From an uncultured bacterium (GTDB taxonomy: Bacteria; Bacillota; Clostridia; Christensenellales; CAG-917), in contig CASQXY010000008.1 in the NCBI GenBank assembly GCA_949432885.1, positions 663-64,662 of the forward strand: 64,000 nucleotides of DNA. The letters run 5' to 3'. How positions within the stretch are numbered: the stretch's first letter is position 1; each line of letters opens with the position of its first letter. Under the pieces are notes generated by a model that was not told the DNA's origin, searched no databases, and was given only the letters and a program-made list of their open reading frames with translations. Below, piece by piece: positions 20,646 to 58,560 of the stretch. The position numbers were made by a program, and so were the translations under genes.

Positions 20646-21146
20646 GTCGGGGTCTCTAAATAGAATAACCCCCTTCCTCAGATGTTCCCCTATTGCGGTC
20701 TCTCACATTTAACTCCGTCAAACAGGGACGTTTGACGGAGACCCCAAGTGAGCCTCTCCGCAAGTCTTACGACGTGGGAACACAACGCGATTGGACTTTC
20801 AGTCAACAATCGCTATTCCGTCGCTACGCTTCTTACGGCGCTCGCATATACAAGCATAAAGCTCTGCTTATGCCACTCGCTCGGGAGCGAATAAACGGGA
20901 CTCACTACCTCGCTTGTACAAAGCGTCAAGCTCGGCACTCGAATGGCGCGCGCCTTGCACGCGCTGGTGCAGTCTCTTGATAAAGTGCACGGCGTATTCG
21001 ATTCTTATCAAACTTAATTGCACGGAATAATGCGATATTTGGATGAAGAGCAAGGAAGACGAGCACACGAGCCGCCAAACGTACTTGCGTACGTGACGGC
21101 GAGTGCGCACAGTCTGACAAAGCTATTCGCCAAATAGCGCGTTATT
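20646..21146 (-). repeat. Composite structured element of about 500 nt filling the pgk-tpiA spacer (hairpin module 21026-21146 plus a 380-nt module)
   Basis: The hairpin copy has a GCAA tetraloop. Its outer inverted repeat AATAATGCGATATTTGG / CCAAATAGCGCGTTATT overlaps the pgk stop. The remainder shares ordered blocks with 23281-23564 and 58081-58437. Confidence 0.7.
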
Positions 21147-22752: not shown

Positions 22753-23238
22753 TCAATACTTCGTCAGGCGTCCCTGCTCCAAAAGGTTCGCGCCGCCAGT
22801 CTGGCGTATCGCCTCGTATACGACTATCGCCACGGAGTTGGAAAGGTTGAGGCTTCTCGCCTCGGATATCATAGGTATGCGTATCGCTCTGTCATAGTTG
22901 TCGCGCAGAAGTTCTTCGGGCAGCCCCTTTGTCTCCTTGCCGAACACGAGATAGTCTCCCTCGCGGAAATCCGCGCCGTCATATCTCTTTGCTCCTTTTG
23001 TCGTCAGATACCAAAACCGACCGTCTGCGTTTTTTTCAAAAAATTCGTCGAGATTTTCATACACAATGAAGTCCGTAAGGTGCCAGTAATCCAATCCCGC
23101 GCGCTTCAACGCCCTGTCGCTTATGTCAAATCCGAGCGGCTTGACAAGGTGGACCTTGCTTCCCGTCGCCGCCGCGGTGCGCACTATGTTACCTGTGTTC
23201 TGCGGTATTTCAGGTTCGACTAAAACTATATTAAACAT
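22753..23238 (-). CDS. trmL: tRNA (cytidine/uridine-2'-O-)-methyltransferase TrmL (SpoU family)
   Basis: 161 aa. LVEPEIPQNTGNIVRTAAATG and the SPOUT knot C-terminus (LNLSNSVAIVVYEA). Confidence 0.9.
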   Translation of the reverse strand: MFNIVLVEPEIPQNTGNIVRTAAATGSKVHLVKPLGFDISDRALKRAGLDYWHLTDFIVYENLDEFFEKNADGRFWYLTTKGAKRYDGADFREGDYLVFGKETKGLPEELLRDNYDRAIRIPMISEARSLNLSNSVAIVVYEAIRQTGGANLLEQGRLTKY

Positions 23239-23280
23239 ATTCTTTTCCTTTACAAAAACTGCTAGTTTTATACTTTAATT

Positions 23281-23564
23281 GAAAAGCCCCCTCTTTCCCT
23301 TCGGGCTTTTCTCCCACCACTCGAATTAGGAACGTACACTATTTAACGTTCCGTCGCTCGCGGAGGGAGACACTCGGCGCTCGCATATACAAGCTTAGAA
23401 CACTGTTTATATCACTCGTTCGCGGACTTAAACAACAATGTCCGCTCACTTGTACGGAACGTCAAGCTCGGCACTCAGGTAGGCGCGCGCCCTGCACGCG
23501 CTATGCAGCTCCTTGAACGACGACTCGTCGTATTCACACTCGTTCAAGCCGATGAGATTATATA
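23281..23564 (-). repeat. Structured element, 284-nt module only (begins immediately after the dus stop at 23565-23567)
   Basis: It shares blocks and hairpins with 20646-21025 and 58081-58437. The terminal stem is GAAAAGCCC/GGGCTTTTC (23281-23311). The 8-bp hairpin lies at 23483-23501. There are four CGAGUG motifs on the minus strand. Confidence 0.65.
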
Positions 23565-24491
23565 TCAATCGTGTAAAAATTGCTCTATTATCCTTAAAAC
23601 ATCTGAGATACTCTTTGCTTCGCCGACGGCTACGCGCACGGCTTTGGCATGGTCCGAGCCTTTGGCGTAGTGGCAAAGCTGCAACTTCATTACGTTTGCA
23701 ATCACTCTGTCGGGCATATAACTGCGCAGAATTTGTATATGCTCTCTTGCCGTCTCCGCTCTGTCGAATTCAAAGGGCTTGTCCGCAAGCTCCGCGAAAA
23801 TGTAAGGTCTGCCCAGCGCGCCGCGGCCTATCATAAATCCGTCCGCGCCCGACTCCTCTCTGACCCTTTCGAGACTTTTTCTATCCGTTATATCGCCGCT
23901 GGCAATAACAGGTATGGAAACCGCCTCTTTGACCTCGCGCGTAATCGAGTGATCGGCGGCTCCGCTGTAAAACTGCGTCCTGTATCTTGGATGTACGGTG
24001 ACCGCCGCCGCGCCGCTTTTTTCCGCGGCGAGAGCGCATTGAACGGCAAGCGGCTTACCCTCCTCGATGCCCGCTCTCATCTTTACGGTCACTGGCTTGC
24101 CCGACCCCTCGCGCGCCGCATGCACAAGCTCTGCGAGCAGAACTGTATCCGTCATAAGCGCGCTTCCGTCTCCGTTGCCGAAAATCTTCTTGACAGGGCA
24201 GCCCGCGTTTATATCGATTACGTCGAATTTTTGAAGCCTTTCGTCCTTTGCGGCCCTGTACATAAATTCGGGCTCGTGTCCGAACAGCTGTACCGCGCAG
24301 GGGCTGTCGAGAGAAGCCAAAAGCTCGTTATTCTCTCTGCCGTTATAGATTATCCCCTTTGCGCTTATAAGCTCCGTATAAGTAAGCCCCGCGCCGTAAC
24401 GCGAACATAAATGCCTCATCGCAACGTCGGAAAAACCCGCAATCGGAGCAAAGAGCAAATCGCTTTCAAGCTGTACGTTTGCTATATGCAT
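23565..24491 (-). CDS. dus: tRNA-dihydrouridine synthase
   Basis: TIM-barrel Dus motifs (LAPIAGFSD, DINAGCPVKK, VTVKMR). Confidence 0.92.
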   Translation of the reverse strand: MHIANVQLESDLLFAPIAGFSDVAMRHLCSRYGAGLTYTELISAKGIIYNGRENNELLASLDSPCAVQLFGHEPEFMYRAAKDERLQKFDVIDINAGCPVKKIFGNGDGSALMTDTVLLAELVHAAREGSGKPVTVKMRAGIEEGKPLAVQCALAAEKSGAAAVTVHPRYRTQFYSGAADHSITREVKEAVSIPVIASGDITDRKSLERVREESGADGFMIGRGALGRPYIFAELADKPFEFDRAETAREHIQILRSYMPDRVIANVMKLQLCHYAKGSDHAKAVRVAVGEAKSISDVLRIIEQFLHD

Positions 24492-58080: not shown

Positions 58081-58560
58081 AGAAATTGCCCCCTCTTTCA
58101 CTTCGGGTATTTCTCCCACCACTCGAATTAGAAAAGTAGTCTTTTTTACTCTCCGTCGCTCGCGGGGGAGACAGTCGGCACTCGCCTATTGTCATATTAT
58201 TCTATCTATGTCACTCGGTCGCAAACGTAAATTAATAAAGCTCGTTTGCTCCCTAGTACTGCGAAGCTCGGCTCGGCACTCACGGGGCGTTCGCCCTGCG
58301 AACGCTGGCAGTCTCTTGAAAAAGTGCATGTCGTGTACACACCCGCACAAGCTAAGTGCAAGCGCTTTAAGTGCGCAATTAGTCTCTTGAATTATGACTC
58401 ATAGTTCTCTCCACCTTATCAATCTAAGCGTTAAATCAAAACTTCATCATTAAGAGAAGAACGCGAAAGAGACATTTTTGCGAACCGCCTAACGTACTGA
58501 CGTACGTGACGGCGAGCAAAAATGCCTCTGACAAAGTTATTCGCTTAATGATGAAGTTTT
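58081..58560 (-). repeat. Composite structured element (hairpin module 58438-58560 overlapping the rex stop, plus a 357-nt module 58081-58437)
   Basis: The 17-bp perfect outer stem AAAACTTCATCATTAAG / CTTAATGATGAAGTTTT encloses a core hairpin nearly identical to the copy at 17972-18064. The rest shares ordered blocks and covarying hairpins with 20646-21025 and 23281-23564. Confidence 0.7.

Follow-up and report, generated by a model that had tools for sequence, protein, structure and literature searches.

A probable modular interspersed repeat with a covariation-supported core fold in the dus-trmL spacer of an uncultured gut clostridium

Background

Structured repeats dispersed through genomes are poorly understood even in model bacteria. 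The known types include the BOX elements of Streptococcus pneumoniae, built as boxA-boxB(n)-boxC, and their kin BIME/REP, ERIC and bcr1. Large, ornate non-coding RNAs (ncRNAs) of bacteria, among them ROOL, GOLLD, OLE and raiA, are single- or few-copy genes with entries in Rfam, and group IIC introns are structured sequences that insert just past terminator hairpins. The Gut-1 RNA (RF01706) was described from human-gut metagenomes only, with neither host nor function known, and was rated certainly an RNA by its discoverers (Weinberg et al. 2010, PMC2864571). In this study, we analyse a 284-nucleotide (nt) stretch, positions 23281-23564, that lies between dus, the gene for a tRNA-dihydrouridine synthase, and a trmL-like methyltransferase gene in an uncultured bacterium of the Christensenellales. 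Positions refer to the window, by which we mean the whole 64,000-nt stretch of contig CASQXY010000008.1 that was analysed; the genome to which it belongs (1.45 Mb, 99% complete) is called G000, with G0xx standing for relatives' genomes and L0xx or L1xx for sampled loci.

We propose that the stretch belongs, as one copy among several, to a family of modular interspersed repeats that lacks an open reading frame (ORF) and is specific to this lineage, and that the core of ~270 nt has probably been selected to fold on the gene-sense strand, where it would be co-transcribed with dus and trmL. The family is unusually large and information-rich for its kind, and it combines an architecture supported by covariation with a host genome that lacks the two families of mobilising enzymes tested, Y1 transposase and reverse transcriptase (RT).

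A covariation-supported fold

RNAalifold, run on 9-94 sequences, gave poor consensus structures; hence we derived base pairs by mutual information (94 distinct copies) and inspection, and then tested them on a MAFFT alignment of 89 sequences, which come from about 25 relatives. The fold obtained in this way has seven helices, one of them long-range. Within the proposed pairs, 77.7% of the cells are paired, as against 67.8% in shuffles, and the covariation score is 0.273 as against 0.128, a value of 0.273 being reached by none of 500 shuffles. When the partner of each pair was slid by 1-3 columns as a control, the score was at most 0.114. The fold of the element family is supported by covariation across the 89 copies, and the structure put forward in a preliminary description of this DNA is, taken as a whole, kept by compensatory changes in the larger alignment. 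One helix of that description did not survive: the 9-bp terminal stem GAAAAGCCC/GGGCTTTTC, thought to covary, is 69.1% paired as against 68.9% when shuffled, and 201 of the 500 shuffles equal it. A local mini-hairpin fits better at the same place, CCC-GAA-GGG in this copy (23297-23305, minus strand) alternating with CCGG-CGUGU-CCGG, 98% paired and showing a GC31/CG12 swap.

The element lies on the minus strand, in the same sense as the dus and trmL mRNA, and this strand, also the one favoured in the preliminary description, is the one that folds. In three reliably aligned helices G·U pairs outnumber A·C (18:1, 76:18 and 70:13), the sheared G•A pairs of the fold would be pyrimidine mismatches on the other strand, and the minimum free energy of the sense strand is -102.3 kcal/mol (z = -2.7) as against -82.7 kcal/mol for the antisense strand. 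The parts of this copy and its surroundings are as follows, in the direction of transcription, each with the evidence that defines it.

23565-24491, minus strand: dus, the gene 5' of the element (Pfam Dus, 1.2e-66)
23549-23564, minus strand: 5' junction UAUAUAAUCUCAUCGG, with a TATAAT-like box that also stands before the genome's other copies of the same subtype
23512-23548, minus strand: H1, a 9-bp hairpin CUUGAACGA/UCGUUCAAG with conserved loop GUGAAUACGACG, the remodelled first hairpin of the family
23287-23518, minus strand: 232-nt tract identical to contig C2 of the same genome (C2:129878-130109), with unrelated flanks on both sides
23483-23501, minus strand: H2, a 7-bp hairpin GCGCGUG-CAGGG-CGCGCGC with conserved CARGG loop (compensatory pairs)
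23468-23476, minus strand: first GAGUGCCGA motif, 5' flank of the long-range helix P3 (columns at least 90% conserved)
23383-23467, minus strand: domain closed by the long-range helix P3, enclosing the H3 arm and the H4 hairpin (compensatory pairs)
23413-23454, minus strand: H3 arm, made up of UAC/GUG, an AA/GA loop, GU/AC, a tandem G•A and the variable stem GCGGAC/GUCCGC (alignment)
23385-23412, minus strand: H4, local hairpin AUAUAAACAG...CUUGUAUAU, variable between subfamilies and overlapping the 3' strand of P3
23374-23382, minus strand: second GAGCGCCGA motif, 3' flank of P3 (conservation)
23310-23370, minus strand: P5 helix (UCUCCCUCCGC-GA-G with C-GA-GUGGUGGGAGA) with tandem G•A, enclosing H6 (95-97% paired)
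23329-23352, minus strand: H6, variable hairpin GGAACGU/ACGUUCC inside P5 (alignment)
23281-23309, minus strand: 3' domain of mini-hairpin, purine run and outer stem (alignment and pairing tests)
23239-23280, minus strand: degenerate A/U-rich remnant of the family's tail module, running into the Shine-Dalgarno (SD) sequence of trmL, AAAGGA (alignment to other tails)
22753-23238, minus strand: SpoU-family methyltransferase gene (trmL-like), 3' of the element (Pfam SpoU_methylase, 1.9e-36)

Compensatory changes are found in several of these helices. Three pairs of H2 each show two to four compensatory pair types (pair 38-51, GC62/CG19/UA5; pair 39-50, CG50/UA23/GC15). P3 joins GCUU (23464-23467) to AUGC (23383-23386), with GC70/AU13 at pair 72-197 and CG80/UA4 at pair 73-196, while pair 74-195 is a U•U in 77 copies and CG, GC or AU in 12. 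All six inner pairs of H3 vary on both sides (for example GC60/AU15/CG14), the entire arm being Watson-Crick in one subfamily (CCGUCC/GGACGG), and the earlier observation that GGAACGT/ACGTTCC and GCGGAC/GTCCGC are swapped elsewhere for different self-complementary stems is borne out. The closing pair of P5 counts GC35/AU24 or AU43/GC39, depending on the test; at the pair that follows the tandem G•A, about half the copies have G-C and the other half A-U. Tandem G•A loops break three of the element's helices, and two GAGYGCCGA motifs are placed symmetrically around P3.

Other motifs had been noticed before, with mixed outcome. The four CGAGUG motifs all exist on the minus strand (CGAGTG at 23318, 23371, 23413 and 23537; ~0.06 expected from the window-wide density), of which only two, at 23413-23418 and 23318-23323, are conserved family-wide; each of these two forms a strand of a helix that a purine-purine loop breaks, the loop being G•A/A•G in P5 and AA facing GA in H3. 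The conserved purine-rich loop is likewise a family feature, GGAAAGAGGGGG being nearly invariant (at least 90% conserved in 60-89 copies), and an SD-like purine run, GGGAAAGAGGGGG, occupies 23287-23299. The outer stem of the 3' domain, GAAAAGC/GCUUUUC, is specific to this copy, an A/U-rich outer stem being present here and in some subfamilies. The local hairpin CTTGAACGA/TCGTTCAAG (arms at 23540-23548 and 23512-23520) is real, but it is the family's H1 and not a substitute for the long hairpin that other copies carry; in this copy its 5' arm is now complementary to the conserved UUCAAG motif.

A further long-range match of 12 nt, 92% complementary, connects 23343-23354 with 23454-23465 (UUGACGUUCCGU with the 5' arm of H6); restricted to this copy and its C2 twin and competing with H6, it may be due to chance or represent an alternative fold. 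Two other pairings were tried and dropped. A switch or pseudoknot in which the purine run would pair with the pyrimidine side of P5 was compared by eye in two subfamilies, and its register was not conserved; a local CUUG/CAAG hairpin in place of P3 covaries in two related sequences and is broken in four, whereas P3 has three compensatory types. We found no promoter-like or terminator-like site belonging to this copy; its 3' end has no intrinsic terminator (GC-rich stem and U tract), the 3' stem being A/U-rich with a large loop, and no terminator/antiterminator pair was detected at this copy.

A modular family confined to essentially one genus

The stretch aligns with two other segments of the window, near 20.6-21.1 kb (20646-21146) and 58.1-58.4 kb (near 58081), and is homologous to both, as had been proposed when it was called the second copy of a long structured module. 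With nhmmer and BLAST we count ~13 copies in G000. By BLAST, 45 of the 108 genomes of the taxonomic family, spread over three of its 16 genera, carry the element; a single genome yields as many as 75 first-look candidates, and copy numbers range from a few (7) to dozens. A scan of 185,579 species genomes with a 19-nt pattern returned 118 loci, 102 of which carry the element, the remaining 16 being the chance matches expected at such a pattern length. The hosts of the 102 loci are metagenome-assembled genomes (MAGs) named uncultured Clostridia, 'Christensenella sp.' or Firmicutes bacterium CAG:238, CAG:475 or TM09-10, or else evidently mislabelled bins. When 401 genomes from across the order were searched with a covariance model of the 3' domain, 11 gave matches; ten of these belong to the genus of the window, and the eleventh, from a second genus, matches weakly. 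The element is thus confined to essentially one genus of uncultured gut Clostridia of the Christensenellales type. Phage and plasmid collections gave no match (blastn, distant mode), and the comparison with Rfam 15, which the preliminary description had suggested, came back empty for the window at gathering score and for 23200-23620 at E<=10, Gut-1 included.

Copies are mosaics. A full unit measures 350-450 nt including flanking modules and consists of an optional long hairpin of ~130 nt placed on the stop codon, H1 with its conserved loop, the core and an optional tail; some copies carry an extra inserted hairpin or an alternative 3' domain. In the present copy the long hairpin is missing, as noted earlier, and the tail is degenerate. 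The alternative 3' domain (…CGCGGAGCGGACGCCGUGGGUUCCC…GGGGGAACGGCGGU.GGGGAAACACGUGAGGAAGGGGG) replaces P5/H6 in a minority of copies, which form their own clade in the copy tree; it is seen at window positions 20646-21010, at C9:60055-60240 of G000, and in L138, L147, L177 and L040. At L140:4990-5110, and likewise in related copies of its subfamily, the core holds two instances of GCGAACGA-hairpin-CCCUAU-U-GAGUG, one as H4 and the other as H6; this internal duplication suggests that the core grew by tandem duplication of a unit of ~50 nt. Further modules are found chained to cores in relatives, at L140:4400-5650 and in upstream flanks, among them arrays of AATTAATAATT followed by a GGGTGGG...CCCACACCC hairpin, a TTCGCAAGATTGTCTGCTTGGTG...GCAAGCGGATAAACG module and tandem ACTTATTC...GTACTTATWMACGGWATGTGC hairpins; joined up, they make non-coding arrays of more than 1 kb. 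Copies often lie less than 200 nt from contig ends (for example in L077, L093, L097, L107, L116, L158 and L189), so assembly breaks in these MAGs are probably often due to this family.

One of the modules is already described. Scanning 15 loci of relatives (120 kb) with Rfam, we found only Gut-1 and one tRNA, the former in five of the 15 loci at 50-54 bits (gathering score 50):

L140, 4662-4743 and 4767-4833: Gut-1 matches
L127, 289-380: Gut-1 match
L150, 2700-2780: Gut-1 match
L147, 1-77: Gut-1 match
L137, 7199-7280: Gut-1 match, ~3 kb from the nearest core

In the first four loci, Gut-1 and core belong to one array and share a strand, with Gut-1 100-250 nt upstream. Because it adjoins the cores in this way, we conclude that Gut-1 is another module of the same composite repeat system and that its hosts are these uncultured Clostridia.

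Turnover and exchange at the dus-trmL locus

The spacer between dus and trmL measures 326 nt in G000, made up of the 284-nt stretch and an A/U-rich remainder of 42 nt that holds the trmL SD. The element begins 1 nt past the dus stop codon (TGA, 23565-23567), as stated in the preliminary description. Synteny of the two genes is kept across the genus; the spacer is not. In several relatives it ranges from gene overlap to ~40 nt, and in many others it measures ~90-140 nt and is unrelated to the element. In the closest relative, G035 (94% identity in TrmL, 86% in Dus), the genes are only 17 nt apart and the element is missing; the spacer of G027 is 37 nt long and empty, and in G034 a remnant of ~110 nt survives, in which UUCAAG, H2 and an inserted hairpin module can still be recognised. 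G015 carries a full, diverged family member whose two junctions agree with those of this copy, ACGATTGA on the 5' side and TGTAAA.GGAA..ATG on the 3' side. Since both junctions are shared, the locus held a family member before G000 and G015 split, with loss or erosion in some species afterwards. The last two dus codons and the TGA lie within ACGATTGA, and because this junction provides the last codon and stop, Dus has 308 amino acids in G000 and G015 rather than the 306 found in other relatives.

Although the locus was occupied before that split, its present core is a recent arrival by all indications. The 232-nt tract at 23287-23518 is 100% identical to C2:129878-130109, the flanks are unrelated on both sides, the copies form a sister pair in the copy tree, and the site in G035 that corresponds to the C2 copy holds only a mini-hairpin and no core. 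Taken together, these observations indicate a very recent homologous exchange with the C2 copy, presumably by gene conversion or as a cassette. Conserved motifs, GUUCAAG and GAGGGGG, stand at the two ends of the tract. Comparison of G000 with G035 reveals further reassortment: one G035 core adjoins a long hairpin whose ortholog in G000 has no core, the reverse case is also seen, and a further G035 copy has a 94.7% identical counterpart in G000 at a site that is not orthologous, the genome-wide identity being 84-91%. In the copy tree, subfamilies are common to several species and terminal branches measure 0.03-0.2 substitutions per site, which shows the family to be old rather than the product of a recent burst.

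Two side observations concern the 5' junction. The segment ACGAUUGAUAUA (23561-23572, minus strand), which takes in the stop codon of dus, matches the internal ACGAGUGAUAUA (23408-23419) at 92% identity, and the bases that follow it also resemble the internal H4 region; because of this resemblance, the end of dus may run into the remnant of an older, truncated copy. The idea that ACGATTGA is a general, stop-codon-supplying end of the element was rejected, as it is coding and in frame in L016 and accounts for one of 81 stop contexts, namely that at this locus. Other insertions are found in the same spacer in relatives: L052 (G036) has ~640 nt, with a possible small helix-turn-helix regulator (judged by eye) and an ORF on the opposite strand, and L048 (G029) has ~400 nt with a small ORF. 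The dus-trmL spacer appears to be an insertion hot spot.

Position relative to genes

We placed 156 element matches against genes called with our own codon-usage model. None is intragenic. Element and upstream gene share a strand in 94 cases and differ in 23; in co-directional spacers the element is sense in 55 and antisense in 18; and 36 matches fall in convergent-gene as against five in divergent-gene spacers, so that divergent promoter regions are avoided. Sigma-70-like promoters show no enrichment in front of the element (18 of 91 copies, 15.6 in shuffles). The genes upstream of 73 non-redundant copies belong to 116 Pfam families, none occurring more than three times, and no consistent tie to one gene family or pathway, of the sort that marks a gene-specific riboswitch or leader, was seen among them. 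Sense copies in G000 follow rpsI, rplQ, rpsO (before pnp), pgk (before tpiA), dus (before trmL), rex, an ABC exporter gene and a DUF2804 gene. Three of them (C4:18672-19085, C4:43159-43677 and C1:122253-122516) stand directly past rpsI, rplQ and rpsO, and another past pgk, where highly expressed operons end; no such bias is seen among the 73 upstream genes sampled from relatives.

Mobile-element classes considered

The Y1 transposase family PF01797 (RAYT/IS200 type) is absent from G000 and from most carriers; it is present in 34 of the 108 genomes, unrelated to carriage of the element, and mobilisation of the RAYT/IS200 type was rejected on this ground. The reverse transcriptase family PF00078 (RVT_1) is absent from G000 and G035. 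A REP, BIME or REPIN identity does not fit a unit that is a multi-helix core of ~270 nt, rather than a palindrome of 20-40 nt or a doublet of such palindromes, and whose carriers mostly lack a RAYT. A miniature inverted-repeat transposable element was dismissed: neither this copy nor the full C2 copy has terminal inverted repeats, and the recurring boundary motif GATAAGG is no target-site duplication because it is identical at all loci. A group II intron or other retro-mobility was set aside in view of the lack of any Intron_gpII or group-II-D1D4 match at E<=10, of a domain V and, in G000 and G035, of an RT, and the reading of a boundary motif, GTTRRRY, as an integron attC site fits only some copies.

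Interpretation

Multi-copy, intergenic, ORF-less, modular in the presence or absence of its parts and restricted to a lineage, the family has the features of a BOX-like modular interspersed repeat, and we regard this as the probable identity of the element. The copy studied here sits inside an otherwise tight dus-trmL operon and would most likely be transcribed by read-through as part of that mRNA; the orientation bias and the lack of promoters are indirect evidence for transcription together with the flanking genes. Any action would then be that of a generic intercistronic or 3'-untranslated-region (3'-UTR) structure, affecting mRNA decay, processing or ribosome traffic, or the element may be a passive passenger; its present core would have been overwritten very recently through homologous exchange with the C2 copy.

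Several points weigh against this interpretation. With no mobilising enzyme found and no terminal inverted repeats, the selfish, mobile part of it lacks a mechanism. More than 100 columns are at least 90% conserved, many of them outside helices, among copies whose variable hairpins are strongly divergent; such conservation exceeds the usual level of REP, BOX or ERIC and suggests a specific partner or function. The orientation statistics and gene calls depend on our own codon-usage gene caller, and both the co-transcription and the RNA nature of the element are deduced from genomic sequence.

The same conservation speaks for the main alternative, a functional structured RNA, be it a multi-copy ncRNA, a ribonucleoprotein scaffold, a ribozyme or a sponge that binds a protein or, through the SD-like run, ribosomes. 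Under such an explanation, which we hold possible though rather unlikely, selection would keep each copy, and the positions past genes would reflect expression from 3'-UTRs rather than selfish spread. The junction nucleotides and tandem G•A are very strongly conserved, and nucleotides outside the helices are conserved more highly than is usual in a selfish repeat; the copies are old by their branch lengths and their subfamilies cross species, yet the fold is kept; neither a Y1 transposase nor an RT was found in the genome to move them. The core is also physically linked to Gut-1 in relatives, copies in G000 follow the highly expressed rpsI, rplQ, rpsO and pgk, and some copies stand behind a terminator with a good promoter (for example TTTACA-17-TACAAT in L163). 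Set against this are the confinement to essentially one genus, the variable copy number from a few to dozens at loci that are not conserved between close species, and decayed remnants such as that in G034; moreover, promoters are not enriched upstream, and ~20-25% of copies are antisense to their flanking genes.

A speculative extension, which we consider rather unlikely, takes in the other modules as well. The core, Gut-1 and the chained modules may together form a new class of ornate RNA domain that is carried on the 3' ends and in the intercistronic spacers of dozens of unrelated mRNAs of one gut lineage, is selected at the RNA level, for example for docking of ribosomes or a protein via the SD-like run and G•A pairs, and spreads without a transposase by homology-driven cassette exchange.

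The presence or absence of the element between close relatives, the frequent position of the core just 3' of a long imperfect palindrome anchored on stop codons, and the identity of non-orthologous copies in G000 and G035 (94.7%, above the genome background) would all be expected if the element acted as DNA, folding as a single strand or a cruciform into a site at which a transposase or recombinase (REP/RAYT, IS200/IS605-PATE, integron-attC or IS110-target type) works, with the conserved structure as the substrate of that enzyme. We think this improbable. Carriage of the element is unrelated to that of Y1_Tnp, neither terminal inverted repeats nor target-site duplications that vary by locus are present, the G·U-specific pairing and sheared G•A fit RNA and would be mismatched on the complementary strand, and the orientation bias relative to transcription points to an effect at the RNA level.

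A regulator specific to dus and trmL, as implied by the locus-specific SD/anti-SD role suggested in the preliminary description, is very unlikely, whether as a leader or attenuator of trmL or as a 3' regulator of dus: the element does lie between the two genes on their strand and does hold the SD-like run GGGAAAGAGGGGG, but it follows unrelated genes of at least 116 Pfam families, is missing from the spacers of the closest relatives (0-40 nt, G035 among them), ends its purine run ~48 nt upstream of the AUG of trmL, which has an SD of its own, and shows no terminator/antiterminator pair.

If the RNA of the probable interspersed repeat has a partner, many mRNAs of abundant uncultured human-gut Clostridia would be marked at once. 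The family also gives the orphan Gut-1 motif a genomic home and context, and there is a practical side, in that such repeats break assemblies, as the copies at contig ends illustrate, and can pass for regulators.

Comparison with known systems

The closest resemblance is to BOX, BIME/REP, ERIC and bcr1. Like these, the element is non-coding, multi-copy, intergenic and lineage-specific, with modules that are present, absent or swapped; it is strongly folded when transcribed, enriched at the 3' ends of genes and in operons, and without a mobilising enzyme of its own. We found no sequence kinship with them, however, and the unit is larger (a core of ~270 nt, 350-450 nt with modules). Its core is a multi-helix junction with a long-range helix, tandem G•A and conserved unpaired nucleotides, in place of a simple stack of hairpins, and no RAYT-type transposase accompanies it.

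Group IIC introns provide a parallel in placement, as structured RNAs of 300-450 nt directly 3' of a hairpin past a gene, in sense orientation; the element differs from them in having no match to domain V or Intron_gpII, no consistent GUGYG 5' end and no RT in the genome. ROOL, GOLLD, OLE and raiA are comparable in size and complexity, in their conserved junction nucleotides and in the lack of a known function, while the element is outside Rfam (E<=10), exists in seven to dozens of copies per genome and shows a high turnover of loci. Gut-1, finally, is far simpler than the core described here, with 77 nt, three small hairpins and GUGAAAU linkers. Neither has an assigned function, and the two share their host group and a design of variable, covarying hairpins joined by conserved linkers.

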